From: a phage
Direction: 5' to 3' (one strand)
Length of the DNA stretch: 64,000 bases
Sequence record: PX092659.1
This document shows, one piece after another, positions 30,619 through 62,593 of the stretch. Within the stretch, counting starts at the first letter, position 1, and every line of letters starts with the position of its first letter. The translations under genes were made by a program, and so were the position numbers. Below the pieces are notes generated by a model. It worked only from the letters and a program-made list of their open reading frames with translations, was not told the origin of the DNA and ran no database searches.

Positions 30619-30620
30619 AA

Positions 30621-30648
30621 AGATATAAGAAAAGGGGCCGAAGCCCCG
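30621..30648 (-). terminator. intrinsic terminator after D11-like gene
   Basis: minus-strand GGGGC-UUCG-GCCCC hairpin followed by UUUUCUUAU. Confidence 0.7.
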
Positions 30649-36424: not shown

Positions 36425-37286
36425 CTAAAATTTCAATACGTTTTGCTAACATATCAATTTCATCTTTGTTTAAATCACCTGGGTCTTTACCTTCAGGCAG
36501 AAGAAAGTTAGCCACTACAGGCGTTAAACGCGTTTTTGTACGAATTAGCTTGGCCAACGCTTGTGCAGCTTTATTACCAGAAGCATCATTATCTAGTAAG
36601 ATAACAACAACTTTTACACCAGCAATAATATAAGGACTGAACTTATCTGCAATGTTATCCGAGGTAAACTGATGTGTACCAAAGCAGCAAGAAGCATAGT
36701 CTATACCATTATCCTCTAGGTTCAGCATATCAAAGATACCTTCAACTAGAATAAGAACTGGAGTATTATATCGTACAGGGAAAATCGGTGGTGAAACTTG
36801 TTTTGGTTTTACTAAGTATTTAGGAGGGGCAGAACTGTTTATAGAACGACCCAAAAATAGGATATTGCGTCCAACAGCATCTGTGATTGGGAATACAATT
36901 CTGCCTTCCCAATTTTCTTGGTGTTGGAAAGCAAAATATTTCTTCAAGGTCTTAGAACTTATACCTCGGAAATCACCTTCGAAAAGAAAGGCAGATTCTG
37001 GGATTGCAAGATTCGTAGATCCATTTCTAATTTCAGAAATTTTTTTACGTACTTGGGATAGTCTTGGAGATTGTCTATATTGAGTTTCATTAAAATAATG
37101 ATAAATACTAGGTATACCTTTGCCAAAACCGCAACTCAAACAGTGCATAATCCCGGTTTCAGGATCAATACGCAAACTTGGGTGTTTATCGTCATGATCT
37201 GGATTCAGGCAGCATATAAGAATATCTCCTCCAGTATCTTTATACTCAATTCCTTTCAGATCAAGTAGTTCTGTTATTCTACTCAT
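36396..37286 (-). CDS. DNA primase (zinc-finger CHC2 plus TOPRIM)
   Basis: 296 aa; zinc finger CCLNPDHDDKHPSLRIDPETGIMHCLSCG; TOPRIM motifs LVEGIFDMLNLEDNG and LLDNDASGNKAA. Confidence 0.82.
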   Translation of the reverse strand: MSRITELLDLKGIEYKDTGGDILICCLNPDHDDKHPSLRIDPETGIMHCLSCGFGKGIPSIYHYFNETQYRQSPRLSQVRKKISEIRNGSTNLAIPESAFLFEGDFRGISSKTLKKYFAFQHQENWEGRIVFPITDAVGRNILFLGRSINSSAPPKYLVKPKQVSPPIFPVRYNTPVLILVEGIFDMLNLEDNGIDYASCCFGTHQFTSDNIADKFSPYIIAGVKVVVILLDNDASGNKAAQALAKLIRTKTRLTPVVANFLLPEGKDPGDLNKDEIDMLAKRIEILVAESLKDLV

Positions 37287-37816
37287 GCGTTTAGCTCCTC
37301 TAATGCAGGATAATTAGACGGGTCGAATATTTCTTGAATAGCGTTTTCCCCATGGAACTGTAGTCGTAGCTTATTAATCTTATCTATTGCTGATTCTAAA
37401 TTCTGGTACTCAAAATATCCACCGAATACTTTCTTTTTATTGGTATCTCTTAGTTGAACTTGCCATTTTTGCCTTTGTTTATTCCAACTAACTCCTATAT
37501 ACCCTGATTTACTTTTAGCTGCTTTATTCCTACTATTCTCTTGGTGAGAAGAATCTTTAAGATTAACCCAACGATTATCACTTCGTATACGGTTTATATG
37601 GTCTACCTCTTCAGGTAAATAACCTTCCATATAGAGAAAAGCTAGTTGATGAGCATAGTAAGGCTTTCCATCTACCCATATACATATATAATCATCTTTT
37701 CTTAAAGAACCAGCTATACTACCAGCTCTTTGATTGCCTCTAGATACTTTTCTAGTAAACTCCCCAGTTCCTGGGGAGTAATCAAATAACTCTTTTAGCC
37801 TTTCCTGTGTTATCAT
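37283..37816 (-). CDS. HNH homing endonuclease with AP2-like domain
   Basis: 177 aa; HNH core AHQLAFLYMEGYLPEEVDHINRIRSDN; YIGVSWNKQRQKWQVQ AP2-like; ATGA overlaps with both flanking genes (helicase stop and primase start). Confidence 0.8.
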   Translation of the reverse strand: MITQERLKELFDYSPGTGEFTRKVSRGNQRAGSIAGSLRKDDYICIWVDGKPYYAHQLAFLYMEGYLPEEVDHINRIRSDNRWVNLKDSSHQENSRNKAAKSKSGYIGVSWNKQRQKWQVQLRDTNKKKVFGGYFEYQNLESAIDKINKLRLQFHGENAIQEIFDPSNYPALEELNA

Positions 37817-39279
37817 ATATCGCTGGCCTGTTCACCTGTTGAATTTTCAGCTTTGTCTTTCTTAGCACGTTTAGGTTGAGCCGGCTTATCCTTCTCAATA
37901 GGGATAACGAACTCAGCTTCCATTTGAGATATATCTTCCATTGCTAGGTTGGTAGTGTTATCCATTCGCAGAGTTTCCCAGTTCATTTTAGGCATAAACT
38001 TCACGCTATCAGAAGAACGAGTCTTAACGAAGTCAAACATAATAGCACCTTGACCATTATCAGCTTTTGCAGCATTAAGATTAGCAGCCATGTCTGCGGA
38101 ATCAAGAATCCCCTTTGACATACGTGTTCTACCATCCTGATCGATCTGGTAAGGAGCTACACCAGCCACGTTATGTTTCTGGCAGATAGATTTGAAAGAC
38201 GAGCTAACAACCATCTGTTCTTTCCAGTCATACATATCAATGGTTTTAGAATCTGGAAGTCGGGTTTGGTTAATATAGTCCAGTAAAGCTACTGTAACTT
38301 TATCACCATATCTAGCAACTAATTTATTTAACTCTACATCAACTGTTGTAATGGACAGTTCAGGGTCATAAACGATAATCATAGGAGTATGTAGTTCATA
38401 CCCCTCTATTAGTTTACTCTCCATATCGTAGAAATCACTCATCTTAGCCATTGTGTACTGTTTAACAAAGTTATCGAAAAGCTCTTCACCACCATTAAAC
38501 ATTCTAGCTCTAGTTCTGGCTAATCTCAACAGAGCTGCACCTTCTAGAGTATTATTACGCATTGCTAGTGCTGATACACCAGCTAACATGGCTAGATTAC
38601 GTCTAAATACTTCATGTTCTTTCATCTCAATTGAGAAGTATGGAGCAATATCTCCATTCAAATATTGCTGAACCTGTATGTTTGAACAGATAATGGATTT
38701 ACCAGTACCACGCCAACCACCAAGCAGTAACGTTTCTGTGCGAGCTAAACCAATTTGAGCGTCGAACTCATTACAAATACCAAGAGCGATTAAGTTCAGT
38801 TTGGTATCTTCTTCTCTCTGGAAAATACGCATGTTATCTGCGTTGAATACTTTTCCAGTATTCGTTACTTTCTCTTCTAATTTTAAGTGAAGGGAGGCAA
38901 CTCGGTTGAGAATTTCTCCCTGATCCAGCATTGTTAAATCTTGAAGCACGTCTGTTTCTAGAAGCTTCAGGAATAAATCCTGTGTATATTCGGCCTCTAG
39001 GACTTCAAGTGCCTGTTCCATGCTCACTTCTGGAATTTGAGTGTTAGCTAAGACGACTAGAGCTTGAGAAAGGCGGGCGTTCCTATTAGCTTCAAGCATA
39101 AGTGCGTCAATGGACGGCATTGTGTTATATTTTTTATAATAATTCTGGACGGCTTGGTAAATTGAGGAGAAAGCGTCATTAAAATGATCTTTATGCAGTT
39201 TTGAGAATGTTTCCAATGCTATTTGCTTCTGTTCGGAAGCTAGAAGCATCTTCAACACTACAGCTTGCACGTTAAACAT
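37813..39279 (-). CDS. replicative DNA helicase, DnaB-like RecA-fold ATPase
   Basis: 488 aa; Walker A LLLGGWRGTGKS, Walker B-like IIVYDPELS; N-terminal helical domain; adjacent to primase. Confidence 0.65.
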   Translation of the reverse strand: MFNVQAVVLKMLLASEQKQIALETFSKLHKDHFNDAFSSIYQAVQNYYKKYNTMPSIDALMLEANRNARLSQALVVLANTQIPEVSMEQALEVLEAEYTQDLFLKLLETDVLQDLTMLDQGEILNRVASLHLKLEEKVTNTGKVFNADNMRIFQREEDTKLNLIALGICNEFDAQIGLARTETLLLGGWRGTGKSIICSNIQVQQYLNGDIAPYFSIEMKEHEVFRRNLAMLAGVSALAMRNNTLEGAALLRLARTRARMFNGGEELFDNFVKQYTMAKMSDFYDMESKLIEGYELHTPMIIVYDPELSITTVDVELNKLVARYGDKVTVALLDYINQTRLPDSKTIDMYDWKEQMVVSSSFKSICQKHNVAGVAPYQIDQDGRTRMSKGILDSADMAANLNAAKADNGQGAIMFDFVKTRSSDSVKFMPKMNWETLRMDNTTNLAMEDISQMEAEFVIPIEKDKPAQPKRAKKDKAENSTGEQASDI

Positions 39280-39853
39280 TATCTAGCAGCTCCTCTGTAA
39301 AGTTATCCGCTATATTCTGCGGTTTAACCCTCTCTATATCTAGAGCATCTAGAGCTGCGAAATCTCCATACAGGGCTAAAAGCAGCTTATCTCTATACCA
39401 CAGAGCTTCTCCTAGAGTTTTTAGGGTTTTTCTAAATACTTTGGAGTTTTTAGATATGGTTACTTTAAATGTGTTATTTTTTGTTACTTCTATATTACGA
39501 ATGCCTAGCTTGTTACCTATAAAGCTATTAGCGGAATTTTGAGAGGAAGTAACTTCACGTAAGTTATTCCAAGTATTATCAGTTTTAATTCTATTTTTAT
39601 GATCTACCTTGTCAGGAATTTCTCCTTCCATGTATAGAAAGGCCCACCTATGCGCTCCCATAGATTTTTGTATACCTGACTCTAAGGTTATCTTTATATA
39701 AATGTAGCCCGATGAATGCATATAGCCTGCAGGTTTGTTAGCGTGCTTAGCATTGAACGCAGGATTATTTTCTCTAGGTAGCCAGTAAAAATTTCCAGTA
39801 TCAGGCTCATATCTTAATAATGTTTTAAGATACTGCTGGGTAATCTCCCCCAT
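39272..39853 (-). CDS. HNH homing endonuclease with AP2-like domain
   Basis: 193 aa; HNH core AHRWAFLYMEGEIPDKVDHKNRIKTDN; C-terminal AP2-like segment. Confidence 0.75.
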   Translation of the reverse strand: MGEITQQYLKTLLRYEPDTGNFYWLPRENNPAFNAKHANKPAGYMHSSGYIYIKITLESGIQKSMGAHRWAFLYMEGEIPDKVDHKNRIKTDNTWNNLREVTSSQNSANSFIGNKLGIRNIEVTKNNTFKVTISKNSKVFRKTLKTLGEALWYRDKLLLALYGDFAALDALDIERVKPQNIADNFTEELLDNV

Positions 39854-39861
39854 TATGTAGC

Positions 39862-39897
39862 CTTCTAATATACAAGAAAGGAGAACCGAAGTTCTCC
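39862..39897 (-). terminator. intrinsic terminator after D5-like gene
   Basis: minus-strand GGAGAAC-UUCG-GUUCUCC hairpin followed by UUUCUUGUAU. Confidence 0.7.
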
Positions 39898-39912
39898 TTA
39901 TCTGCCTTCTAA

Positions 39913-40680
39913 TTATTCAGCAGCCGCAGCTTTTGCATCCAGTTTAGCACGCTTAGCGGCACCATCATAGTCCTTAGCAACCAGACCACGACGGGACAGC
40001 ATAGATTTAACACCACGCTCAGACTTACCAGTTTTCTCAGCGATCTCAGCAACAGTCATGTTAACCAGATCCAGACCTTCTAACAGATCTTCACGAGTTT
40101 TAGCACTTGAAGTTTCCTGTACCGGCATAGCCGCAATACGACCTTCACGGAGCAGGCTCAGAGCTTTACCACGGATCTGCTTAATATTGCGACCGAAGTG
40201 AGCAGCGATAGCTTCAATAGTAGCACCAGCAACAACCTGATTAACAAAGTCAGTTTCTTCATCCGGAGTGAAGGAACGAACAGCAGCAGCTTTTTCAGTT
40301 GGTTTAACAGAAGCGGTCATTTCCAGACTCAGGATCTTACCCTGTACCTGTTTAGCACCAAACTGACCACCAGCTACAGCAGCAGCGATTTCAGCATAAG
40401 TATACTGACCAGCATGAGCGTTCAGGAAATCAACCAGTTCAGCTTCCTGCTCAGGAGTCCACGGGGATTTCTGTACTTCGTTAGCTTTCTGTACTTCGAA
40501 ACCTTCTTTACGCAGCTTAGAGCCAACAGAGCGAGCGGTAACGTCTTTGCCAGTTTCAGCAGCCAGTTCAGCAGCGATAGCCGCTACTTGTTCTTGAGAG
40601 ATTACAGCAACACCCAGAGCAGTGGCTTTTGCTTTCAGAGACTCGGTTACACCTTCTACGTTCCAGTTCAGTTTAGACAT
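39913..40680 (-). CDS. abundant early DNA-binding protein with three internal repeats (D5-like)
   Basis: 255 aa, Ala-rich, E. coli-optimal codons; three repeated helix-turn-helix-like modules (TYAEIAAAVAGGQFGAKQVQGKILSL / TIEAIAAHFGRNIKQIRGKALSL / TVAEIAEKTGKSERGVKSMLSR). Confidence 0.5.
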   Translation of the reverse strand: MSKLNWNVEGVTESLKAKATALGVAVISQEQVAAIAAELAAETGKDVTARSVGSKLRKEGFEVQKANEVQKSPWTPEQEAELVDFLNAHAGQYTYAEIAAAVAGGQFGAKQVQGKILSLEMTASVKPTEKAAAVRSFTPDEETDFVNQVVAGATIEAIAAHFGRNIKQIRGKALSLLREGRIAAMPVQETSSAKTREDLLEGLDLVNMTVAEIAEKTGKSERGVKSMLSRRGLVAKDYDGAAKRAKLDAKAAAAE

Positions 40681-45535: not shown

Positions 45536-45769
45536 TTACGATTCCTTGAGTAAAGAAGAAAGTTCAGCATATACTTTATCTAACTCAAACCCTATGCGAA
45601 GAGATACGTTAGTCCTCCGTTGTTTAAGTAACCACTCGGATATGTTAGGGATACCAGCTAATCTATGTGGTACCACCCTACATAGCTTTTCCGAAGTGTC
45701 ATAAACAGGAACTTTACGTTCTTTTACTGGGAACTTCCTTGTTTCCCATTTCTTATTCTTCACTGTCAT
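45536..45769 (-). CDS. hypothetical small protein (questionable)
   Basis: Track ORF 45536..45877 overlaps HNH gene by 125 nt; internal ATG at 45769 gives 77-aa product MTVKNKKWETRK... Confidence 0.25.
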   Translation of the reverse strand: MTVKNKKWETRKFPVKERKVPVYDTSEKLCRVVPHRLAGIPNISEWLLKQRRTNVSLRIGFELDKVYAELSSLLKES

Positions 45770-46283
45770 ATCTCTCCGAGGGATTAAATTCACCAAACAG
45801 CTCTTTAACTCCCCTAAGGTATAGCTGATGGGCTTCTTCCGGGGTATCTCGTCTACCAAAAATATGTTGCTTTCCATCGCAGTAAGCGTAGGCCATATAC
45901 CTATTACCTCGTTTTACAACTCCAGTGAATCCGGTAGAATTAGTAGAACACTTCTTATTCTTCCCATTTTCGGAATAGGTAGCCTTACGTAAATTATCCC
46001 ACAAGTTGTTTAAACTATCGCCGTCTTTATGGTCAATAGTTTTACCCCCAGGATCTTCACCTGTCTTTATAAACCAGATTATTCTATGGGCTAAGTAAGC
46101 TGTCCGCTCCCCATTTATCGTAAACTCTAGCTGTCTCCCAGTTTTCATTTTGGAGCCCGCTACCTTTCCCTTCCTTGGGCCAGATAACCAAATTAAGTCC
46201 CCAGTACTTTCGTCATACCTAAGCTTTTCTAGGATAAATGCCATAGGAGGCATTGGTTTATGCATTTTCATTAGTTGCTCCAA
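45753..46283 (-). CDS. HNH homing endonuclease with AP2-like domain
   Basis: HNH core AHRIIWFIKTGEDPGGKTIDHKDGDSLNN; AP2-like FTGVVKRGNRYMAYAYCDGKQHIFGRRDTPEEAHQLYLRGVKELFGEF; start overlaps 3' end of origin-binding gene. Confidence 0.75.
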   Translation of the reverse strand: MEQLMKMHKPMPPMAFILEKLRYDESTGDLIWLSGPRKGKVAGSKMKTGRQLEFTINGERTAYLAHRIIWFIKTGEDPGGKTIDHKDGDSLNNLWDNLRKATYSENGKNKKCSTNSTGFTGVVKRGNRYMAYAYCDGKQHIFGRRDTPEEAHQLYLRGVKELFGEFNPSERYDSEE

Positions 46284-49044
46284 GTTCGGACAGTACTTCT
46301 TCTGCCATAGCCTTCTCTTCCTCTGTCATGAATTTGAAAGGAATTGGCATACACTCGATTTTACAATAGGTTCTGTACCAGTCTACGATATTCTCCGTGT
46401 TCATATCTTTACCAATACCCATCATACCAAGATACATTCTAGCATATTTTGGGTTAGCACTCTGACCTGTTTTAAGGAAGAAGTCCTTCTTCTTACCTTT
46501 CAGAGCCTCTATGAATGGTTTAATGGTCACATTTGAACACTTCTTAATATCTTCCCAGAACATCTCGTGCATCTTATGGAAGAATGCAGCTCGATCATTC
46601 GGTTTATCTTTGATATATTGTTCAACATGCTCAACTGTTACATCTTTAATAGACTCGAGATGATAATAGCGAACAAGAAGTAGCTTAGCTTCATATGCAT
46701 CCGCATGGCGCGGAGCACAATAATCAGGAGTTGAGTGCAGAATAGCTTTGATTCGCTCCTCTGTGTACTCTTTACCAGCACCTTCAATAGTTCCCCAGCT
46801 TTCACTGAAAATATCAATAGTTGCACCCTGATCAAGCAAGTAATAACGTAAAGTACTAGTATAGTTCCTAGATTCTAATTCCCTGCGACGTGCGTATAAT
46901 TGCTGTGCTAACTCCAGCCAACCTTCATCAATATTATATTGTTCAGAACCTGCGGAGAATCCACTCGTAGATTTATCAATAAAATAATAGATATTTTGAG
47001 CACCACGGTCGCGCCTGATTGCTTGGAAACGCATGTTTGGCGCTTGATTACTAGTTCTAGTAATAACGAATACGTTATCAAAATAGTTGAAGTCAACACC
47101 ACTCGTTACGGATGGACTACATAATAAGCAATCAATTTGTTGATCAATTAGCTCATTAGTTGTGTAATCCAGAATACGTCTAATATCTACATCAGACGTA
47201 GAGTTTGAGTGGATTTCCTTAACTAACGCACCCGTATTACGACGCAACGCCATGCCCTTCTCATTCAGTTCATCTGGCCCACAGTCAGATACTAGGATAG
47301 ATTTCTCACCCATCTCCAGGGAAGTCTGAAGTGCAACCCAAATACTAGACTCATCAGGGAACTCATAAGCATGAGCTTTTGATAGCATTTTACGGTGGTG
47401 ATTGTAAAATGCAACCGGTTTATCAAACTCAATCAAAGAACCATATGCTTCAATTGTTTCTGCACTAATATCCCCATCAGATAATATAATGATTTTTGCA
47501 GTTGCAAGAATATCCCGAAGAACCTGAATACATTCACGACGTTGTTTAACAACCGGGGCGAATAATAGGTCATTCATTACAGCGTCACATTCATCGATAA
47601 AGATTGCATCGATTTGACCAATAAAACTCTTGAACTTATGTAAAGAGTGAATAGTTGTGGACATACGGTCAATAGCGCCACGCTTAAAATTAAGCATATC
47701 TACAGACTTATCATATTGTCCTGCACTAAATTTCTTAGCATTTGAAGATACCAGTGCTCGAGTATTGGTAATTGCTAAGAAATTACCTTTAATAACTCCT
47801 GAATCTAACCAACGAACAACAGCCGTTGTTTTACCCGTGCCTAGGCTTGCTTTTACAAAAGTCATATAGCCTTCTGGTGGTACAGTATTTAATTTCAAGA
47901 AGTTGTCGGTCTCTAGTGAGTTAGTCTCTAGTTTTTTAAGTGGAATACCTTTTAAAACATCAGGTATATCACGTTTAGAATTATTCACAAAGGCTTTTAA
48001 CGCCTGCTTACGACCGTTATTAAAGTAATCTTGAATATTACGACTATTATCTTTAGTTGCAATATACTCAGATAAAGCTGGGCGGATCTCCTTCTCTAGC
48101 CAGCCAAAATCTACACCATCCTCTAGTGCTCGGTGATAGAGTTTAGGAATAATACGTAGATATACACCATCCTCAGCTTCTTCTAACTCGCTGATGGTTT
48201 CTTCTACTTTATCAGAGGCAGCTTTTTTACCCTTAATTTGGTCTAGTAAAGAGTAGAACTCTTCCTTAAACTCACCTCTAGTTGTTTCATAGTCAACTAG
48301 ATTATTAGGTAAATTTACTTTTGAGCCTTTAACAAATACCAGACGTGAAGCACCCTCCGCTTTAAACGGATCTACTATACCATCAGTGAATAAAGGATCT
48401 GCAAAGTAATGGAGCTGTACGGAAGAGTAATAAGCTAAGTCGGCAATATCAAAGCCATACTTTTGTCTACTACTTTCGTTGATAGATGTAAATAAGAATT
48501 TGATTTGACCCTGAGTTACTTTAACATTAGATTCTAGTATTAAGTGCATTCGGATACCTGGTTTTAGCCCAGCCGAAGACGATGCATGAGCGATAAACCC
48601 TGCATCAAGAGGAAACATATCCTCACTAATACTATTTAACATTCTAATAATATGTCGAGCCATGCCAACAAGATCAAACTTGTTACAACCACCTGTATCT
48701 ACAATACCATCCACGTCCATTGCAATTATATGACTTGGGTTAGATACATTAAAGTTGCCCTTCTTACGTCGCACATTATTTTTAGGTGCAAGACATCGAC
48801 CTCGTACCGCAACGATATGAGGGTCAGACGTTAAACGTCTCATAAGAGGAAGCATTTCTACTAGGGTTTGAGGATCAACTTCATCAATTACATCAAACTT
48901 GAAGGGCATTGAAGCTGGTTTACCTTCAGGATGCTTTGAGGAAAATCTTTTAGCAAAAAGATAGTCTTCTGCTTTAACTTCTCGCCAATTGCCTGTGGCT
49001 AAATCGCGATGAAATCCTGCATGACCTTGTAGGATTGAAAACAC
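46258..49044 (-). CDS. putative replication origin-binding protein / DNA helicase-like ATPase
   Basis: Walker A SLGTGKTTAVV and Walker B IFIDECDAV in central region; track ORF extends to TTG 49122 but GTG 49044 has SD AGGAG 7 nt upstream. Confidence 0.6.
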   Translation of the reverse strand: MFSILQGHAGFHRDLATGNWREVKAEDYLFAKRFSSKHPEGKPASMPFKFDVIDEVDPQTLVEMLPLMRRLTSDPHIVAVRGRCLAPKNNVRRKKGNFNVSNPSHIIAMDVDGIVDTGGCNKFDLVGMARHIIRMLNSISEDMFPLDAGFIAHASSSAGLKPGIRMHLILESNVKVTQGQIKFLFTSINESSRQKYGFDIADLAYYSSVQLHYFADPLFTDGIVDPFKAEGASRLVFVKGSKVNLPNNLVDYETTRGEFKEEFYSLLDQIKGKKAASDKVEETISELEEAEDGVYLRIIPKLYHRALEDGVDFGWLEKEIRPALSEYIATKDNSRNIQDYFNNGRKQALKAFVNNSKRDIPDVLKGIPLKKLETNSLETDNFLKLNTVPPEGYMTFVKASLGTGKTTAVVRWLDSGVIKGNFLAITNTRALVSSNAKKFSAGQYDKSVDMLNFKRGAIDRMSTTIHSLHKFKSFIGQIDAIFIDECDAVMNDLLFAPVVKQRRECIQVLRDILATAKIIILSDGDISAETIEAYGSLIEFDKPVAFYNHHRKMLSKAHAYEFPDESSIWVALQTSLEMGEKSILVSDCGPDELNEKGMALRRNTGALVKEIHSNSTSDVDIRRILDYTTNELIDQQIDCLLCSPSVTSGVDFNYFDNVFVITRTSNQAPNMRFQAIRRDRGAQNIYYFIDKSTSGFSAGSEQYNIDEGWLELAQQLYARRRELESRNYTSTLRYYLLDQGATIDIFSESWGTIEGAGKEYTEERIKAILHSTPDYCAPRHADAYEAKLLLVRYYHLESIKDVTVEHVEQYIKDKPNDRAAFFHKMHEMFWEDIKKCSNVTIKPFIEALKGKKKDFFLKTGQSANPKYARMYLGMMGIGKDMNTENIVDWYRTYCKIECMPIPFKFMTEEEKAMAEEVLSELGATNENA

Positions 49045-53031: not shown

Positions 53032-54858
53032 TTACTTAAGATTTAAGTGTTTTACTCTACCAAGAACTTCTTTTTGTTTCCCAGAATTGAAAGGCCTACT
53101 GCCAGGAGATCCCAGGTACCCGCAAACCCTACGTGTAACCTCTATTTCTTCAGACCCACAACTCGGACATACAAACCCACGTTCAGAGGCAACAGATTCA
53201 CCCATATACCCACAGTTGAAGCACTCATCAATTGGTATATTAACACCAATATAATGGCTACATTCTAGCCCCTTATCCACCACATACTCAAGAGCTTTGT
53301 GGAACTTTTTCATTTGAGGTAGTTCCACAAATGATATATTACCACCATTAGCTATTTTGGTAAAATGAGCCTCGTACTCAAATTTAGTATCTGGAGCTAC
53401 CTTCTCTCTTACGTCCAAATGGTGACTATTAGTAAGATAGCCTTTGTCTGTTAACCAAGAATACTCTGGGAATCTACGTTCTAGTAATTTATTAAAACGA
53501 TTACATAGAGACTCACTAGGAGTAGCATACAAGCTAAACCCAAGATTAGTCTCATTAGCTTTAACTTCGCAACGATTTTTTAGGTGAGTGAGAACTTCCT
53601 CTGTAAATTCAATACAGTCCCTATGGGTCTGTGGTAAACTAAACATTATTTGGCACATCTCATAGACCCCAATATACCCAAGAGATACAGAGGATCTACC
53701 CTCAAAAATAGGCCATACATATTCTTCCCCTTCTAAACGTGCACCAAACCCACCGTGCATATAAAGAATAGGGGCTTGTTTAGCCTTAACTTTCTTCAGT
53801 CTGTTTAAGAAGAAGTCATGCGCTTCAAAAGCCTCATCCACATATTTGTCTAGAATACCCCAGAAATCTTCAAAAACTCCATCTGCCTCAGCAGCAACCA
53901 TAGGTAGATTGATAGACACAACACCTAAATTATTACGTCCTGCAATTTCTCCAGAGGGGATAGCAGATAAAAAACTACGACAACCCATAGGGGCTTTAAA
54001 ATCACCAGTAACAGCTACAACTCTCTCGTAACTTAAATAGTCTGGATACATACGAGTAGCAGAACACTCAAGTGCTAGCTGTTTTATATCATAGTTAGGA
54101 TCACCTGGGTTTTTATTTAACCCTTCTTTAACTGAGAATACTAGTTTAGGGAAGATAGGGGTTGACTCAGCAGCACCTAAACCTTTAATGCGATTTTGGA
54201 GGATGGCTTTCTGAATCATCCTTTCCTCCCACTCCTGCCCTAATCCAAAGCCAAGCGTAACAAAAGGGGTCTGCCCATTAGAGTTAAATAATGAATTAGT
54301 TTCATACTCTAGAGCTTGGAATGCATCATAACACTCTTTTTCAGTAAGCTCAGTAGCATACACAGCAGCTTTTCTTTCATCCTTGAGCCAACGTAGCCCA
54401 CGACCCAGATGTTTATTGTAAGACTTTCTGACATACGGGGCTAGAACCTCGTCGATACGATCAATAGAGGTGCCACCATACTGAGCACCAGATACTTGGG
54501 CAATAATCTGAGCAGTGATTGCACATGCAGTAGTTATGGATTTAGGAGTTTCAATATTTGCATTACCAATTTTAGTACCATTCTTCAGCATGCCACCAAG
54601 GTCTACTAAGCAACAGTTAGTGTACCCCTGCGCCCTGTAATCCATATCATGAATGTGTATCTTACCTAGATTATGTGCGTCTAATAGATGTTTGGGTAAT
54701 TCCTGCGATACTAAATACTTGTTGATTTCTCCGGCTAATAAGTCTCTTTGAGTATGGAACATCTCACTAGGCTTATTAGCATTATTATGTTGTAAGTCCT
54801 TGTCAGCAGTTAGAGTGAGCAGGCCTTTGCAATTCTCAATTAATTCATTCTCTGTCAT
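53032..54858 (-). CDS. nrdD: anaerobic ribonucleoside-triphosphate reductase
   Basis: 608 aa; C-terminal glycyl-radical motif RVCGYLGSP and zinc site CFNCGY...CPSCGS; catalytic Cys region. Confidence 0.9.
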   Translation of the reverse strand: MTENELIENCKGLLTLTADKDLQHNNANKPSEMFHTQRDLLAGEINKYLVSQELPKHLLDAHNLGKIHIHDMDYRAQGYTNCCLVDLGGMLKNGTKIGNANIETPKSITTACAITAQIIAQVSGAQYGGTSIDRIDEVLAPYVRKSYNKHLGRGLRWLKDERKAAVYATELTEKECYDAFQALEYETNSLFNSNGQTPFVTLGFGLGQEWEERMIQKAILQNRIKGLGAAESTPIFPKLVFSVKEGLNKNPGDPNYDIKQLALECSATRMYPDYLSYERVVAVTGDFKAPMGCRSFLSAIPSGEIAGRNNLGVVSINLPMVAAEADGVFEDFWGILDKYVDEAFEAHDFFLNRLKKVKAKQAPILYMHGGFGARLEGEEYVWPIFEGRSSVSLGYIGVYEMCQIMFSLPQTHRDCIEFTEEVLTHLKNRCEVKANETNLGFSLYATPSESLCNRFNKLLERRFPEYSWLTDKGYLTNSHHLDVREKVAPDTKFEYEAHFTKIANGGNISFVELPQMKKFHKALEYVVDKGLECSHYIGVNIPIDECFNCGYMGESVASERGFVCPSCGSEEIEVTRRVCGYLGSPGSRPFNSGKQKEVLGRVKHLNLK

Positions 54859-55708
54859 TGATTATTTCCTCGATAAACTTTATAGCTACTTTTGGTTCAA
54901 TATTGAAGAATTCCGTAGCGCCATCAAAATCTTTGTAATGGCAATTCTGTTCTTTAAAGTAGTTATGAGCTAATTTTTCGATTCGAACTGCACTACTATA
55001 TTCGCCAATTTCAAATACTTTAAGTATTTCCAAATCAATAAGGTGGCCACTAGATTTAATATGTAGAAGCCTACGCTCTGGATTGTTAGACCTACCTATT
55101 TTAACTCCATGTGTGGGGCTATGCATAACATATATCTTAGTACTTTCTAAATCTCTATAGCTACAGTAAGGACAACCGTTCCCTCTTAATACAGATCCTG
55201 GAGTAGCTCCCCACCTATGCCCTGCGCCACAGAGAAAGGTAGTCTTAGTATTCGCATTAACATATTCACCTACTATTCTGATATTTCTGGCAGTAAGACG
55301 ATCATTTATAACACTAATACTAAGTTTCTGCTTATTAATAGCACAAGACGGACAGCCACTCCCCCTATTAATTATGCTATTAAGCGTAGTAGTCCACTCA
55401 TGACCACAAATACACCTAAATTTAGTGTTTATATCAACACTATTTTTATATCCCCCCAACAATGTAATACCTCTGTCCTGTAATACAGAACTAATTTTAT
55501 CAATATCTAGTTTACGGCTATTAGTAGAGCAAGTAGGACAATTGGTCTTTCCATTCCTAATAGCGTCAAATTTAGCTGTCCATTGATGGCCATATTCACA
55601 CTGATACGTATGCCTATACCTAGAATTTTGATACGGCTTATCCACCATAGTAAAACCACGCTCGGCTAGGCATTTATCTACTTCTTCTTGGGTTAATTTT
55701 TTCGGCAT
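54845..55708 (-). CDS. zinc-ribbon plus T5orf172/GIY-YIG-like putative homing endonuclease
   Basis: approx 288 aa from ATG 55708 (track extends to TTG 55765); four repeats ending CPTC/CPSC/CPYC; C-terminal IYVMHSPTHGVKIGRSNNPERRL...GATEFF; consensus promoter upstream. Confidence 0.6.
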   Translation of the reverse strand: MPKKLTQEEVDKCLAERGFTMVDKPYQNSRYRHTYQCEYGHQWTAKFDAIRNGKTNCPTCSTNSRKLDIDKISSVLQDRGITLLGGYKNSVDINTKFRCICGHEWTTTLNSIINRGSGCPSCAINKQKLSISVINDRLTARNIRIVGEYVNANTKTTFLCGAGHRWGATPGSVLRGNGCPYCSYRDLESTKIYVMHSPTHGVKIGRSNNPERRLLHIKSSGHLIDLEILKVFEIGEYSSAVRIEKLAHNYFKEQNCHYKDFDGATEFFNIEPKVAIKFIEEIINDRE

Positions 55709-55736
55709 TACTCTTCTCCATAGAATTTTTACATTT

Positions 55737-55765
55737 ATTATACTAAACATTATCCACCATGTCAA
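55737..55765 (-). promoter_or_regulatory. consensus sigma70 promoter
   Basis: minus strand TTGACA(55765-55760)-17 bp-TATAAT(55742-55737), then SD GGAGAAGAG and ATG 55708. Confidence 0.7.
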
Positions 55766-55902
55766 TTAAAATTTTCTTTCGCCATCTAATACTGTAATAT
55801 TTCGCGTATAAATAGTTGAGTATCTAGTATCACACATCCCACGTTAAAAGCAAGCAAATTTTTTATTTAAATGCAATATCATAGGCTTATTTAAAATTGT
55901 AG

Positions 55903-55931
55903 TTGCTTTTTACTGTATATATTGGTATAAT
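55903..55931 (+). promoter_or_regulatory. T5-type promoter upstream of phoH (divergent from 55737..55765)
   Basis: TTGCTT(55903-55908)-17 bp-TATAAT(55926-55931) with TG at -15/-14 (extended -10). Confidence 0.65.
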
Positions 55932-56004
55932 ATATTTGTAAGTTGATAAACAAGATCTTTTTGTTGATCCTCTGTTAGCGAAGTACACTATAGGAGTGTT
56001 ATTT

Positions 56005-56757
56005 ATGGGAAAAGCACGTCAAAAAAGAGAGAACCGCAACGGTTCAAGAAAGCGTGGCAACAAATATGAGAATAACGTAATTCAGGCGGATTTTTCTAAT
56101 GATTACGCTAACCCAGTTGCTAAATCCCTAGTAGGTAAAAACCGCGAGCAAAAATCATATATCAATATGATCAAGAACAACACAGTGACTGTGGGTATTG
56201 GTGAGCCGGGTACAGGTAAAACCTTTATTCCGTCTGTTCTTGCAGCTCAGGAACTCGTAGACATTCACTCAGATATTGAGCAAGTGATCCTCGTACGTCC
56301 TAATGAACCTCTAGGTAAGTCTCTTGGTATGCTTCCTGGTGATCTAGCGGAAAAGCTAGAGCCTTGGTTGGAGCCAATAGCTGATGGTATGAAATGGGCC
56401 ATCGGCGATCATGCGTATAAAGGATATGTCGAACGTCAGAAAATTAAATTTTTGGCTGTCGAACATGCTCGTGGCAGAACTTTCAACAACTCCTATGTAA
56501 TTGTCGATGAAGCTCAGAATATTTCCGTTGAGGCAATGATTTGTCTCCTAACTCGTGTAGGACAAGACTGCCGTTTAATTATCTGCGGAGATATAGCTCA
56601 GAAAGACATTAAAGGTGACTCAGGTCTAGCACTCCTTATGGAAGTCTATGAGAAATACGAAAATGCCCCATTCTCAATGATCGAATTGATTGATAACGTT
56701 CGTTCTGTCGAGTCTAAAGCATTCTATGATATTTTTAAAGACATGGGGAAGGTGTAA
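56005..56757 (+). CDS. phoH: PhoH-like ATPase
   Basis: Walker A GEPGTGKTF, Walker B VIVDEAQN; ATG 56005 with SD TAGGAGTG (track ORF begins at GTG 55996). Confidence 0.85.
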   Translation: MGKARQKRENRNGSRKRGNKYENNVIQADFSNDYANPVAKSLVGKNREQKSYINMIKNNTVTVGIGEPGTGKTFIPSVLAAQELVDIHSDIEQVILVRPNEPLGKSLGMLPGDLAEKLEPWLEPIADGMKWAIGDHAYKGYVERQKIKFLAVEHARGRTFNNSYVIVDEAQNISVEAMICLLTRVGQDCRLIICGDIAQKDIKGDSGLALLMEVYEKYENAPFSMIELIDNVRSVESKAFYDIFKDMGKV

Positions 56758-56980: not shown

Positions 56981-57122
56981 GCTAAAAAGCTAGACTGGTA
57001 ATATACAGGGCCTGGGTATGAAAATACTCGGGCCTTTTCTATCAGAAAATTTTATTTGCCTAATGACCAATAATAATGTAGAATATTCCTTAAATCCTGA
57101 TAACTATAAAAAGGAAAGCCAA

Positions 57123-59453
57123 ATGAGCCATCGCATTGAAAAAGTAATTAAACGTGACGGTACTGTAGAAGACTTTGCTCCTGAAAAACTCAATGGTTGG
57201 GCAGAGTATGGTTGCAAAACAGTTGATGTAAGTTGGTCAGCCATTACTATGGCTGCTCAAAAAACTCTACCTAAAGGGGTTGTAGATTCCGACACTCTGA
57301 TGGACGCATTAATTAAAGCTGCTGAAAGTCTTATCAAAGATAACCCAGCATACGATGTGCCAGCAAAGGAATTACGTCTTGCGCAAATGCGTAAGCGCCT
57401 TTATGACTCTTTCGAACCACCTTCTCTACGTTTCTTCCATGACCATATGGTTAGCGTAGGTGCATGGGAAGACATGAGTGCATGGATTACCGATGAGCAA
57501 TTTGAAGCTCTGAATCAGGTTATCGATCATGATCGTGACCGTCTTTTTACTAGTGGTGGACTGAAACAGTTCTTTGATAAGTATTCCCGTCGTAACATAG
57601 CCACTGGTGAAATTTATGAAACCCCGCAGTTTGCCTACATGGGTATGGCAATGGCGATGTTATCTCAACCTAACTGGACAATTCTAGATGCAATCGACCT
57701 CTACAACGCAATGTCGCTCCACAAAATCAACGTTCCTACGCCGCCACTGGTTGGTCTGCGCTCTAGTGACCGTGGATTTGCTAGTTGCTGCCTCGTGGAT
57801 TCCACTGACACGTTGGATTCAATCGACACCGCCGAGCACATCGTCTTCAAAATGGTCGCAGCCAGAGCGGGAATCGGGTATCATCTTGAAAGCCGATCAA
57901 TTGCTGATCCGGTGCGAAATGGGGCATTCCCGCATTCCGGAAAACTGCCATATTATAGACACATTGACCGCTCAGTAAAGGCCAATACTCAGCAAACTCG
58001 TGGGGGTTCTGCCACAGTGTCTTATCCATACTTCGACCCTGAAATCATTCAATTGATGCAGGTTAAGCAACAACGTGCTACAGATGAGAATAAAATCGAT
58101 AAGATGGATTATTCTCTGAGCTTCAACAATCTTTTGTTAAAACGTTATCTGAAAAATGAAGATATTACGCTAATGTCATACTTCTATGCTCCAGAAGTTC
58201 ATGAAGCGTTTTATAGTGATGACGAGGCTAAATTTGAAGAAATCTACGTGGCAGCGGAGAAACGTGTGGCATCTCTTACAAAGATCGACCACGAAGGAAA
58301 AACAGTTCCTGCAGCTCCTAAAGTCTCTGCAAAAGAAATCCTAGATACTTGGCTACGTATCCGAATGGAAACAGGACGTATGTATGCTCATCACATCGGG
58401 GAATCTAATCGTCACGGTAACTTCCTTGATCCGATCCGTATGACAAACCTTTGTGTTGAGATTACTCAGCCTACGCGCCCGTTCCATCATATCACAGAAC
58501 TGTATAAGACAAAAGAGCAGCTTGATCAAATGAAGCCGGAGGATATTGGTGAAGTATCTCTGTGTAACTTAGGTGGTGTTGTACTTGGGCGCATGGAATC
58601 TCTGGCTGAGTGGGAAAAAACTTGCTACATCCTTCTGAAATTCGTTGATACAATTATCGAAATTCAGGATTATCCGTTCCCAACTATGGAATATACGGCT
58701 AAGAAACGTCGTAATGTTGGTATTGGTCTAATGAACGCAGCAGGTGCAATGGCAGCAGAAGGTCTGGCTTATGAAGGTATTGAAGCCCGTAACTGGATTC
58801 ACCGTGAGGCTGAAAAACTGTCTTACTTCCTGCATAAAGCCTCTGTACGCCTAGCTAGAGAACAGGGCGCATGTGAGTGGTTTGATCGTACTAAACCATC
58901 TAAAGGAATTCTGGTAATCGACACGTACAAGAAAACTGTTGATGAACTGGTATCCGTAGGTCTAGAAATGGATTGGGAGTCTCTGCGTGCAGATATTCTG
59001 AAATACGGTATGCGTAACTCTGTTCTGACTGCTCAGATGCCGGGGGAAAGTTCCTCTGTTCTGTTAGGTGTTACTAACTCTATCGAACCGCCTCGTAAGA
59101 TTGTATCTATCAAGGGTAGTGCAGTAAATAAAGTAATTGCAATTGCTCCAGGTGCAACCGATTGGGAAACGTTAATGAGCTATAAATTGGCTTATGATGT
59201 AGATCGTATCGAGTGGATCAAATGGGTAGCAACTATGCAGAAATTCTTCAGTCAGTCTATCAGTACGAATATGTACTATGACTACACTAAGTTTGAGAAT
59301 GAAATCATTCCTGGCCCAGTAGTAGTTCGTGATTTCATGACTGCTGTTAAGTATGGGTGGAAAACTTGGTATTATGCTAACTTCAATACCGCAAATGGTG
59401 GAGGTGCTGGAGAAGAAGCAGCCGGTTGTGCATCAGGTGGTTGTACTATTTAA
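57123..59453 (+). CDS. nrdA: ribonucleoside-diphosphate reductase large subunit
   Basis: 776 aa from ATG 57123 (SD AAAAAGGAAAG); N-terminal ATP-cone (HRIEKVIKRDGTVEDF), catalytic Cys regions, C-terminal Cys pair CASGGCTI. Confidence 0.9.
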   Translation: MSHRIEKVIKRDGTVEDFAPEKLNGWAEYGCKTVDVSWSAITMAAQKTLPKGVVDSDTLMDALIKAAESLIKDNPAYDVPAKELRLAQMRKRLYDSFEPPSLRFFHDHMVSVGAWEDMSAWITDEQFEALNQVIDHDRDRLFTSGGLKQFFDKYSRRNIATGEIYETPQFAYMGMAMAMLSQPNWTILDAIDLYNAMSLHKINVPTPPLVGLRSSDRGFASCCLVDSTDTLDSIDTAEHIVFKMVAARAGIGYHLESRSIADPVRNGAFPHSGKLPYYRHIDRSVKANTQQTRGGSATVSYPYFDPEIIQLMQVKQQRATDENKIDKMDYSLSFNNLLLKRYLKNEDITLMSYFYAPEVHEAFYSDDEAKFEEIYVAAEKRVASLTKIDHEGKTVPAAPKVSAKEILDTWLRIRMETGRMYAHHIGESNRHGNFLDPIRMTNLCVEITQPTRPFHHITELYKTKEQLDQMKPEDIGEVSLCNLGGVVLGRMESLAEWEKTCYILLKFVDTIIEIQDYPFPTMEYTAKKRRNVGIGLMNAAGAMAAEGLAYEGIEARNWIHREAEKLSYFLHKASVRLAREQGACEWFDRTKPSKGILVIDTYKKTVDELVSVGLEMDWESLRADILKYGMRNSVLTAQMPGESSSVLLGVTNSIEPPRKIVSIKGSAVNKVIAIAPGATDWETLMSYKLAYDVDRIEWIKWVATMQKFFSQSISTNMYYDYTKFENEIIPGPVVVRDFMTAVKYGWKTWYYANFNTANGGGAGEEAAGCASGGCTI

Positions 59454-59462
59454 TAAAAACAA

Positions 59463-59489
59463 GGAGATCTTCGGGTCTCCTTTTTCTTT
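59463..59489 (+). terminator. intrinsic terminator after nrdA
   Basis: GGAGATC-TTCG-GGTCTCC hairpin followed by TTTTTCTTT. Confidence 0.75.
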
Positions 59490-59499
59490 GAAATTTTAC

Positions 59500-59528
59500 T
59501 TGCTAATCGCTACCAGATTTGCTATAAT
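59500..59528 (+). promoter_or_regulatory. T5-type promoter upstream of HNH gene and nrdB
   Basis: TTGCTA(59500-59505)-17 bp-TATAAT(59523-59528) with TG extended -10. Confidence 0.7.
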
Positions 59529-59554
59529 ATCTCCATTAGTTAAGGAGATTAGTT

Positions 59555-60070
59555 TTGATAACACAAGATGAATTAAAAAGGATTCTGGAGTATAATCCAG
59601 ATGAAGGAACATTTACTTGGTTAAATAACCAAGAAGTACACAATAAAGTAAGAGGATTACCTGCTGGCTGTTTAAAACCACACTCAGTAGACCCTAACCG
59701 AAAAGACTTAGTGATACAAATCAAGGGCAAGAAGTACCCTGCACAAAATATTGCCTTCCTGTACATGACAGGAAACTTACCTAAAGTTATGGTTGACCAT
59801 ATAGATGGAGATTCACTAAACTATAAGTGGACTAATCTAAGAGAAGCAGACTGGCAATTAAATAGTCAAAATAGAAAAACCAGTAAAAACAATATATTGG
59901 GTACTAAGAATATTCGGAAGAAAGGGTCTGGATTTCAAGTTAGAAAATCCATTAACGGAAAAGAATATGTGAAAACTCTTCCAACTCTAGAAGAGGCAAT
60001 AGAGTATCGAGATTCTTTAATCCTCTCTATAACCAAAGATCCAACACTACTTAGAAACACAGATAAATAG
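59555..60070 (+). CDS. HNH homing endonuclease with AP2-like domain, between nrdA and nrdB
   Basis: 171 aa; TTG start with SD TAAGGAG; HNH core AQNIAFLYMTGNLPKVMVDHIDGDSLNYKWTN; paralog of 30142..30618 (both begin MITQD.LK). Confidence 0.8.
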   Translation: MITQDELKRILEYNPDEGTFTWLNNQEVHNKVRGLPAGCLKPHSVDPNRKDLVIQIKGKKYPAQNIAFLYMTGNLPKVMVDHIDGDSLNYKWTNLREADWQLNSQNRKTSKNNILGTKNIRKKGSGFQVRKSINGKEYVKTLPTLEEAIEYRDSLILSITKDPTLLRNTDK

Positions 60071-60078
60071 GAGAACTA

Positions 60079-61224
60079 ATGACAACTTTACTTAACTTAA
60101 ACTGGGATCATACCAATAAAGATCTATTTCTCGGTGATTCTCTTGGTATTGCAGATTATGTACGAGTAGCCCATCCAGAGCTGGAAAGGCTGGCGTTATT
60201 AGCTCGCTCTCAATTTTGGACTGAAACTGAAATCAGTCTGGAAGCAGATAAGAAACAATGGCCTAATCTCCCACGAGAAATTCAGGAAATTACACTCCTG
60301 AACTTAGCATGGCAGACTCAAACTGATTCCTTTATCAGTCGTGCCCCTGAAGCAGCTATTATGCCACTTGTAAGTCGTCCAGAATTGGAAGGTATGCTCA
60401 AACAGTGGAGCTATTTTGAAGACTTGCATAGTCGTGCTTATAGCAATATTATTCGTAATGTGCTGACTGATCCAGCAGAATTTATTGATTCTGTAACCAA
60501 AAACCAAGAAGCATTCGCGCGCATCGCTGATTCTGTTGAACTATTCGATGAACTGTACCAGTTAGGTCAGTATTTCATCGCAGTACGCGATCATCGTGGC
60601 GACAATACATACCCAGAAACGGAGTTTCCTGAAGTTAAACGTGAAACTCAGGCTAAACTATTAGATGCTTACTTTGCTATCTATGGTCTGGAAGCAATGC
60701 AGTTTTACGCATCCTTTGCATGTACCTTTGCATTAGCAGAGAACGATATTCTGCAAGGTATTGCTAAAAATCTGCAATTAATCGCTAAAGATGAAGCTCT
60801 GCACACTCAGATGTCCAAAGCAATCATCCAGATTATGTTCCAGCAGTTTGACAAAGACCTAGTAGATGAAGCAGTGGCTAAAGCACCAGCACAGCTCCTG
60901 AAAACCCTGAAAACTGAAATTGAATGGGGTCATTTCATTTTCAAAGGTCGTAGTCTGATTGGCTTGAATGCAGAACTTCTAGAAGAATATCTGTACTTTG
61001 TGGGGCGTAATGCATTTATGCACATCGGTGTAGAATGGCCTAGTCATTTACCAGTAATCACCAAAAACCCTATTCCGTGGATTATGAACTGGTTGGATAC
61101 TACTTCTCTACAGCCTGCTCCACAAGAAATTCAGATTGGTGCAGCCTACCGTGTAGGTCAGGTAACTGAGACCTCTACTGATACTCTGAAAGATCTGGGT
61201 AATGAATTTGGAGATTTCTTATGA
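60079..61224 (+). CDS. nrdB: ribonucleoside-diphosphate reductase small subunit
   Basis: 381 aa; di-iron ligand motifs (FEDLHSRAY, EALHTQ) and ferritin-like fold signature. Confidence 0.9.
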   Translation: MTTLLNLNWDHTNKDLFLGDSLGIADYVRVAHPELERLALLARSQFWTETEISLEADKKQWPNLPREIQEITLLNLAWQTQTDSFISRAPEAAIMPLVSRPELEGMLKQWSYFEDLHSRAYSNIIRNVLTDPAEFIDSVTKNQEAFARIADSVELFDELYQLGQYFIAVRDHRGDNTYPETEFPEVKRETQAKLLDAYFAIYGLEAMQFYASFACTFALAENDILQGIAKNLQLIAKDEALHTQMSKAIIQIMFQQFDKDLVDEAVAKAPAQLLKTLKTEIEWGHFIFKGRSLIGLNAELLEEYLYFVGRNAFMHIGVEWPSHLPVITKNPIPWIMNWLDTTSLQPAPQEIQIGAAYRVGQVTETSTDTLKDLGNEFGDFL

Positions 61225-61754
61225 TTACAGCAATGTATGCAGTTGGGCCGAATGGGGAGTTCGGCCTCCGAGGTAAACTTCCCTGGGGTTCCTTCAAAGA
61301 AGAACTAGATGCTTTCTATTCTCAACTGGACGTGTTGAATCCAGATAACATCATCATTGGTGCGGGTACTTATTTAGCTCTTCCATACGCCGTTAGAGAA
61401 CGTATGATTGGAGCTTCTGACCTATTTATTCGTGCTGATCGTCCACTGCCAGACGATATTACACATGATATTTACACTCCAATTTCTAAGATTGGGGATG
61501 CTTTACCTACATTTCTGAAAGATCAGCAGACAGTAGTTCTAGGTGGGGCTAACCTTCTTCTAGAAATGTATATTCATGGACATATTGAAAGTGCTTTTGT
61601 ATCTACAATCTTTAGTGATCAAAAACTAGAGGCAGATACACACCTAGATAGTATGATACTGGATTATAACTATGAATCCACTCGATTAGTCTATGCAGTT
61701 GGCGCAAACAGTGATAACAGCCTGCGATTTGTACAGGAATTGGTTACTTATTAA
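61221..61754 (+). CDS. dihydrofolate reductase-like protein
   Basis: 177 aa; N-terminal ITAMYAVGPNGEFGLRGKLPW resembles DHFR start; located between nrdB and thyA; ATGA overlap with nrdB. Confidence 0.6.
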   Translation: MITAMYAVGPNGEFGLRGKLPWGSFKEELDAFYSQLDVLNPDNIIIGAGTYLALPYAVRERMIGASDLFIRADRPLPDDITHDIYTPISKIGDALPTFLKDQQTVVLGGANLLLEMYIHGHIESAFVSTIFSDQKLEADTHLDSMILDYNYESTRLVYAVGANSDNSLRFVQELVTY

Positions 61755-62593
61755 TGCAACAATACTTAAAAATTTTGACAGATGTAATTTTACTAGGTGA
61801 ACCCCGTAATGACCGTACAGGAACAGGCACAGTTTCAATTTTTGATTCTTACGCTAAATTCGATCTACGTGACGGGTTTCCTGCTGTCACTACCAAACGT
61901 CTAGCTTGGAAATCAGTAGTAGGAGAACTTTTATGGTTCTTGTCTGGTTCTACAAATCTTCATGATCTACGTGTATTCACATTTGGTCGTGACGAAGGAC
62001 AGTGGACCATCTGGACTCCAAATTATGAAGACCAAGCTATAAGTATGGGTTATGATAAGGGTAATCTAGGACCAGTATATGGTAAACAGTGGCGTAACTT
62101 TGGTGGGCGAGATCAGATTCTAGAACTCATTGAGGGACTCAAAAATAACCCGCATGGCCGTAGACACCTAGTATCTGCATGGAACGTAGCTGAACTGGAC
62201 AAGATGGCATTACCACCATGTCACTATGGTTTCCAATGTTACATAAGTAATGATGGATACTTAGATCTTAAATGGACACAACGCTCTGTGGATTGTTTCC
62301 TCGGTTTACCTTTCAATATTGCTAGTTATGCTTTATTAACGCATATATTAGCAAAACTGACAGGATTAAAACCTCGTTATCTTATCTTTAGTGGCGGTGA
62401 TACTCATATCTATAATGACCACATGGAACAGGTAGAAGAACAGGTAAAACGTAAACCTCGTCCTTTACCGACTCTAGTAATGCCAGAATTTGTAGATCTT
62501 TACGACTTACTAGAAAATAATACGGCAGCTTGGTCATTCCATTTAGAGGGGTACGATCCTCATCCAGCTCTTAAAGCTAAAATGTCCTCTTAA
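61754..62593 (+). CDS. thyA: thymidylate synthase
   Basis: 279 aa; active-site LPPCH, RRHLVSAWN, DxxxHxYxN-like motifs. Confidence 0.92.
   Translation: MQQYLKILTDVILLGEPRNDRTGTGTVSIFDSYAKFDLRDGFPAVTTKRLAWKSVVGELLWFLSGSTNLHDLRVFTFGRDEGQWTIWTPNYEDQAISMGYDKGNLGPVYGKQWRNFGGRDQILELIEGLKNNPHGRRHLVSAWNVAELDKMALPPCHYGFQCYISNDGYLDLKWTQRSVDCFLGLPFNIASYALLTHILAKLTGLKPRYLIFSGGDTHIYNDHMEQVEEQVKRKPRPLPTLVMPEFVDLYDLLENNTAAWSFHLEGYDPHPALKAKMSS

Follow-up and report, generated by a model that had tools for sequence, protein, structure and literature searches.

The open reading frame (ORF) that separates nrdA from nrdB in this T5-like phage genome (Demerecviridae) is very probably the orthologue of T5 hegH (P-TflVIII), a free-standing HNH homing-endonuclease gene that uses the resident promoter of nrdB. 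The window referred to below is the whole stretch of DNA analysed, 64,000 nucleotides of sequence record PX092659.1. Judging from alignments with related phages, the insertion appears to have neither a promoter nor a terminator of its own, and the 5' end of nrdB (nt 6-126, extending up to nt 231) appears to be a co-conversion tract inherited along with the HNH gene. Such joint movement of a gene and its variable flank is the classical signature of intronless homing.

The T5 reference annotations of 2004-2005 already contain the gene, its position, the promoter and the terminator. In AY587007 the order is a rho-independent terminator, "putative early promoter T5P28", "putative endonuclease", rir2 (nrdB), frd and thy; AY543070 contains the promoter and "hegH, putative H-N-H-endonuclease P-TflVIII" (T5.095), and in DT57C the gene is named "nicking homing endonuclease F-TflVIII". 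T5 hegH occupies the same position, has the same TTG start and is preceded by the same terminator and promoter, and its protein is identical over all 171 residues. The two genes differ at the C-terminal end. The window has a TAG codon 8 nt before the nrdB ATG, whereas T5 has CAG and an ORF that is three codons longer and overlaps the nrdB ATG (TAATG).

A 1.8-kb stretch of the locus matches 445 phage records, the best of which is Salmonella phage phB7 (97.5%), and its DNA identity to T5 is 94.7%. The features of the locus, in window coordinates, are as follows.

57018-59453, plus strand: nrdA, large subunit of class Ia ribonucleotide reductase (Pfam Ribonuc_red_lgC, 3.8e-119; stop TAA at 59453)
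59461-59489, plus strand: resident intrinsic terminator downstream of nrdA (stem of 9 bp with a UUCG loop, then a T-run)
59500-59528, plus strand: predicted sigma-70 early promoter of the nrdB-frd-td unit, T5 "P28" (promoter scan and T5 annotation)
59531-59554, plus strand: left insertion junction and HNH leader (alignment with empty sites; Shine-Dalgarno AAGGAG at 59542-59547)
59555-60070, plus strand: putative HNH homing endonuclease gene, probable T5 hegH / P-TflVIII orthologue (Pfam HNH_3, phrog_99)
60079-61224, plus strand: nrdB, small subunit of ribonucleotide reductase (Pfam Ribonuc_red_sm, 2.6e-36; ATG at 60079)
60084-60204, plus strand: putative HNH-linked co-conversion tract at the 5' end of nrdB (differences from SSP1 are clustered here)
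61221-62593, plus strand: frd (dihydrofolate reductase) and td (thymidylate synthase), overlapping ORFs

An earlier sequence-only reading of this DNA had listed a terminator, a promoter, a TTG-started HNH gene and its placement between nrdA and nrdB, and the scans, the ORF list and Pfam located all four elements where they had been described. Both nrdA and nrdB are intact on either side of the HNH ORF, which is intergenic, has its own Shine-Dalgarno sequence, start and stop codons, and is not part of an intron or intein. The Shine-Dalgarno sequence of nrdB (AGGAG, 60069-60073) overlaps the stop codon of the HNH gene (TAGGAG). The tightly packed downstream cistrons frd and td are predicted to belong to the same transcription unit as nrdB, and the next promoter in the T5 annotation is found only after thy.

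The start of nrdA deserves a separate comment. Two signals, a terminator and a promoter, fall inside the first 35 codons of the 811-residue ORF that begins at 57018 (region 57009-57125). The hairpin is CCTGGGTAT-GAAA-ATACTCGGG followed by CCTTTTCT, and the promoter is TTGCCT-17-TAGAAT(ATTCC) at 57056-57084. Both signals are annotated in AY587007, and AY543070 keeps the long ORF. The true start of nrdA is probably the ATG at 57123, because AY587007 starts the gene at the equivalent position, downstream of the annotated terminator and promoter.

The best plus-strand match of the terminator scan is the hairpin AAGGAGATC-TTCG-GGTCTCCTT (59461-59482), which is followed by TTTCTTT up to position 59489. 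The hairpin folds into a 9-bp stem capped by a UUCG tetraloop (dG of -12.5 kcal/mol, z = -2.5 relative to shuffled sequences) and looks bidirectional. Terminator-like sites were above chance in the same scan (12 compared with 3.6 expected), and the terminator after nrdA is also annotated in T5 AY587007 and in BB1. The promoter consists of TTGCTA (59500-59505), a 17-nt spacer, TG (59520-59521) and TATAAT (59523-59528), the latter two forming TGcTATAAT. With a score of 10 out of 12, it is the best site in the 6.3 kb scanned and has the sole extended -10 element there. As the scan by itself found 11 promoter-like sites where 16.2 were expected, which is not above chance, the support for the promoter comes from its conservation among T5-like records and its annotation as an early promoter in two T5 records. 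It is kept at 95% identity or better in 431 of 436 T5-like records, a level above that of the flanking coding DNA, and it is annotated in S114 as well as in AY587007 and AY543070. The HNH gene is probably transcribed from this promoter, in first place on a message that also covers nrdB, frd and td. A search of the literature for a T5 RNA-seq or transcription start site map covering the nrdB promoter gave just general statements on T5 early promoters.

The site between nrdA and nrdB is occupied differently in different T5-like phages. Sixty of the 445 records, sampled at even steps, were typed by the span of the match (1278-1285 nt for empty sites): 10 contained the present allele, 33 were empty and 15-16 contained other HNH alleles. 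About 55% of the sampled records thus have contiguous nrdA and nrdB genes, and these carry the same terminator-promoter module. A 261-nt query made from the empty junction matched 256 records at a coverage of 80% or more, but this number was dropped as a count of empty sites, since pieces up to 630 nt apart get joined and loci containing an HNH gene may pass. At the protein level, the carriers of the present allele amount to 75 records that are at least 80% identical, and no record falls between 60% and 80%.

Alignment with the empty sites defines the boundaries of the insertion. On the left, the sequences are identical through TATAATAT and homology breaks at 59530/59531, downstream of the -10 box. 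As divergence begins at 59531, the alignment places the HNH gene downstream of the -10 box and upstream of the ribosome-binding site of nrdB, where it appears to replace a native leader of ~29 nt. On the right, similarity to the empty sites does not resume at the nrdB ATG, but inside nrdB. Over nt 6-126, nrdB is 20-25% diverged from that of empty-site phages. The first 500 nt of the gene contain 43 differences between the window and SSP1, of which 30 are confined to nt 6-126 (Fisher p = 1.3e-10), and there are no more until nt 195. Most of these 30 differences (22) are at third codon positions, and just two amino acids differ. An equivalent diverged tract on the nrdA side was looked for and was not found.

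The diverged tract follows the HNH gene rather than the phage that carries it. Among 17 phages, nt 1-150 of nrdB differ by 0-4.7% within the seven carriers, which include both Tequintavirus and Epseptimavirus, and by 20-27% between these and every non-carrier. Beyond the tract, the sequence of nrdB tracks the genome background. This is illustrated by the carrier 8sent65 and the empty-site phage Stitch, whose nrdB genes are 24.7% diverged over nt 1-150 and 0.8% diverged over nt 241-900. The edge of the tract is sharp. Its position, nt 126 or nt 231, varies with the pair compared; for 8sent65 and Stitch it is at nt 231 (p = 3e-21). The tract of the present type (a-type) occurs in 72 records only, essentially the carrier set, and a search among these 72 tract records and the ~75 carriers for a phage that has the a-type tract and no HNH gene, as would be left behind by gene loss, found none, so that a loss phase of the homing cycle is not seen in these records. 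It is from the position of the diverged tract alone that the target of the endonuclease in HNH-less alleles is placed within the 5' tract of nrdB. Alternatively, the tract could be no more than donor DNA that flanked the gene in a distant lineage.

One record combines the tract with a different gene. In MG065692.1 ("Campylobacter phage C13", positions 28671-29301), an a-type nrdB 5' tract (91.6% identity) lies beside an HNH gene that is only 39.5% identical to the present one. This locus may be a recombinant or a sixth allele. MG065692.1 is a T5-like record with an unlikely host label, and records labelled as Listeria phage are also among the T5-like matches.

The HNH protein of 171 residues is encoded from the TTG at 59555 to the TAG at 60070. 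It matches Pfam HNH_3 with 31.5 bits (the cut-off is 24.8) and phrog_99 at 1.4e-45, and belongs to a very large phage HNH family with tblastn matches in 1686 phage records. No match was found in a search of NCBIfam with the protein, and Pfam searches with its C-terminal 60 and N-terminal 75 residues taken separately gave nothing usable. When six alleles found at this site are combined into a profile, it matches I-HmuI (1U3E) in the catalytic core with an E-value of 2.4e-5. Residues D81, H82, N94, N103 and N106 are invariant across the six alleles and align with the DH...N...N residues of I-HmuI. An AlphaFold model made from the single sequence, with a mean pLDDT of 47 and a catalytic region below 50, is too poor to confirm the beta-beta-alpha-metal fold; at its C-terminal end, a beta-beta-beta-alpha module (pLDDT 70-79) resembles a small domain for DNA binding. 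Among the carriers, the protein differs by 0-1 amino acid changes although the flanking genes differ by 5-11%.

In two Epseptimavirus carriers, atrejo and 8sent65, expansion of a TA repeat (ATATAT to ATATATAT) shifts the reading frame after the catalytic motif, at positions 1289-1291 of the atrejo locus (L013) and 1292-1294 of the 8sent65 locus (L016), which are equivalent to 59892 of the window. The frameshift could represent decay, repeat slippage or a sequencing error. As it is rare (2-3 of 68 records), widespread decay of the gene through frameshifted copies was rejected. An ORF of 76 residues also lies antisense inside the HNH gene (59536-59766, minus strand). Its equivalent in DT57C is labelled "putative H-N-H-endonuclease P-TflVIII" beside the real gene, and the assignment of that name to the minus-strand ORF is almost certainly an annotation artefact and was treated as one.

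Several further nuclease-like genes are found in the window. Four paralogues of the HNH gene, all on the minus strand, are located at 39275-39916, 37286-37831, 30145-30648 and 45756-46325. Their phmmer E-values against the HNH protein of the nrdA-nrdB site range from 2e-22 to 3e-13 (the self-match is 1e-117), and they are probably the counterparts of the F-TflI/II/IV-type genes of T5. Between nrdD and phoH, at 54845-55765 on the minus strand, there is an ORF of 306 residues that has DUF4379/CapR zinc-finger modules in repeats and, at its C-terminus, a T5orf172/MUG113 (GIY-YIG-like) domain. The region 54300-56300 of the window is covered to at least 80% in 27 of 444 T5-like records, and most records match the phoH side only. 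This ORF looks like a second, rarer mobile nuclease insertion.

The arrangement resembles several known systems, each in a different respect. In the description of the T5-like phage AKFV33 (2012), P-TflVIII is noted to separate nrdA from nrdB, and the gap is regarded as a hot spot for homing endonucleases, like that of mobE in T-even phages (PMC3326045). T4 MobE, which lies between nrdA and nrdB and has no promoter, introduces nicks into the 5' region of nrdB in T2, and flanking markers are inherited along with it (PMC2790892). The present gene shares with it the genomic niche, the lack of its own promoter and a linked region in the 5' end of nrdB. Unlike T4 MobE, the present gene is found behind a separate resident promoter and downstream of a terminator. 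Homology of the two proteins was considered and rejected (BLASTP E = 9.2; hhalign probability 0.2%), so that the resemblance is one of position and probable mode of action and not of family. The closest solved structure by sequence is that of I-HmuI from the Bacillus phage SPO1 (PDB 1U3E), with which the pattern vDH.DG...N...NLR.....N..N can be aligned. The two proteins have the same H-N-N variant of the motif, in which Asn replaces the last His. The similarity is limited to a catalytic core of ~55 residues, the C-terminal DNA-binding part being unmatched. In contrast to the present gene, which is free-standing, that of I-HmuI lies inside a group I intron. The T5 enzymes F-TflI and F-TflII, and also F-TflIV, are HNH nicking endonucleases from the tRNA region, that is, distant paralogues in the same phage family at other loci. 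They are cited as site-specific endonucleases of T5 (PMC3326045, PMC10644984). Their activity has been shown, whereas that of the present gene is putative.

The existence of these nickases bears on whether the protein might serve the phage rather than itself. A domesticated enzyme could introduce nicks into virion DNA or exclude competitors, and this reading would agree with the specific nicks carried by T5-like genomes and with the HNH nickases F-TflI, II and IV that T5 encodes (PMC10644984), with the label of a nicking endonuclease given to the gene in DT57C, with the four paralogues in the window, and with the integrity of the ORF in nearly all carriers, the TA-repeat frameshift being found in 2-3 of 68 records. 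The gene nevertheless cannot provide a core function, as it is missing from ~83% of T5-like phages and the site is empty in ~55% of them, and the linkage of the gene to a recoded flank across genus backgrounds is what homing would produce. Competitor exclusion, moreover, can hardly be separated from homing. Domestication is therefore considered unlikely.

The sequence-only reading had proposed instead that a cassette with its own terminator and promoter splits nrdA from nrdB and places nrdB under a promoter different from that of nrdA, which may decouple the expression of the two genes. On such a model, an autonomous cassette would have separated a formerly co-transcribed nrdA-nrdB pair. Part of this interpretation holds: an HNH gene has been inserted between nrdA and nrdB, which are contiguous in more than half of the sampled relatives, and a terminator and a promoter do precede it directly, the promoter being the best sigma-70 match in the region. 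The origin of these signals is a different matter. The HNH-less phages SSP1, BB1, S114, GSW6 and Stitch have a 106-nt spacer between nrdA and nrdB that contains the identical hairpin and the TTGCTA-17-TGnTATAAT promoter, and the same scan repeated on SSP1 recovers both. The promoter is thus already found upstream of nrdB in phages without any HNH gene, and the claim that the insertion put it there is contradicted. The 76-nt terminator-promoter module (59455-59530) occurs in 436 T5-like records (in 391 it is complete, and in 431 the identity is 95% or better), whereas the present HNH allele occurs in only ~75; about 45 records show the promoter half of the module alone. The break of homology downstream of the -10 box leaves the module outside the insertion. 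Furthermore, a comparable terminator-promoter pair is found upstream of nrdA, and such pairs appear to be the regular punctuation of the T5 early region. The cassette could be revived by assuming precise secondary deletions that left the signals behind, but this is unlikely in view of five alleles and two insertion points. Overall, an imported set of signals is highly improbable. Because phages without the HNH gene possess the resident module as well, any separation of nrdA from nrdB at the level of transcription would be ancestral in T5-like phages.

That the gene is a decaying, inactive relic, kept passively inside the nrdB transcription unit because it supplies the nrdB ribosome-binding site, is scarcely credible: the frameshifts of atrejo and 8sent65 after the HNH motif, the TTG start and the variation of the stop codon and C-terminus between T5 and the window would fit, but the protein is conserved to within 0-1 changes in carriers whose flanking genes are 5-11% apart, its catalytic residues are intact, and its spread over two genera with a sharp co-conversion boundary implies recent activity.

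By combining these observations, it is possible to outline how the homing gene would operate. Transcription would start at the resident early promoter, with the HNH gene as the first cistron of the HNH-nrdB-frd-td unit. The protein would be translated from a weak TTG codon behind a strong Shine-Dalgarno sequence and hence at a low level, and nrdB would be translated from the Shine-Dalgarno sequence that overlaps the HNH stop codon. HNH enzymes of the I-HmuI type and T4 MobE are nickases. In a mixed infection with an HNH-less relative, the enzyme would nick or cut the allele of that relative in the initial ~130-230 nt of nrdB, and repair templated by the genome that has the HNH gene would then copy this gene together with the synonymously recoded, cleavage-resistant stretch of nrdB. 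We infer the nuclease activity, the location of the target and homing itself from the sequence.

The present allele is not the only one to have entered the gap. At least four other HNH alleles, with 29-43% amino acid identity to the present one, are found between nrdA and nrdB; they are typified by Spc35, IrmaTschudi, phiLLS and the group of FFH1, phiR2-01 and AKFV33. Like the present allele, they belong to phrog_99, have the same domain order and are found at the same hot spot between the two genes. The left junction TATAATATCT is common to types b, c and e (Spc35, IrmaTschudi and phiLLS), and each of these types is accompanied by its own diverged nrdB 5' tract. Type d (FFH1 and phiR2-01) is unlike the present allele in being inserted upstream of the resident promoter, with the resident hairpin exchanged for a different one (GGGGCGAAAGCCCC followed by TTTTATT). 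The type d genes are located as follows.

855-1432 of the FFH1 locus (L010): type d HNH allele
2463-3068 of the phiR2-01 locus (L012): type d HNH allele

The 5' end of nrdB remains of the empty type in these phages (FFH1 differs from SSP1 by 1.3%), and inspection of the FFH1 and phiR2-01 loci revealed no convincing promoter belonging to the type d alleles themselves. In the phiR2-01 record, nrdA is annotated in two pieces.

The position of the left junction may also touch the promoter itself. T5 early promoters have been reported to contain an ATATT discriminator motif, which is possibly tied to regulation by gpT5.026 (PMC7472727). The sequence TATAATATT occurs 12 times in the window, compared with 2.2 occurrences expected. 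At the position following the -10 box (59523-59531), empty sites read TATAATATT, but wherever an HNH gene is inserted after the promoter the sequence is TATAATATC. The latter is also found at the promoter that precedes the present HNH gene, because the insertion junction falls there. It is conceivable, although rather doubtful, that the slot of ~30 nt from the -10 box to the nrdB start is a contested landing site, with the change from ATATT to ATATC as a side effect on expression. The left junction is the same in at least four HNH lineages (29-43% identical), each with its own synonymously recoded nrdB 5' tract. If this suggestion is correct, an arms race of endonucleases against resistant target alleles would be taking place inside one essential gene, and the ATATT to ATATC change could affect, in a gpT5.026-dependent manner, when or how strongly nrdB-frd-td is expressed in the carriers.

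The significance of the locus is otherwise small beyond its correct annotation, the correction being that the transcription signals belong to the phage backbone and not to the mobile gene. The recoded nrdB tract offers a concrete place in which to seek the target of the enzyme. The mobile unit appears to reach ~126-230 nt into nrdB, and this would explain the local mosaicism seen in comparisons of T5-like genomes.
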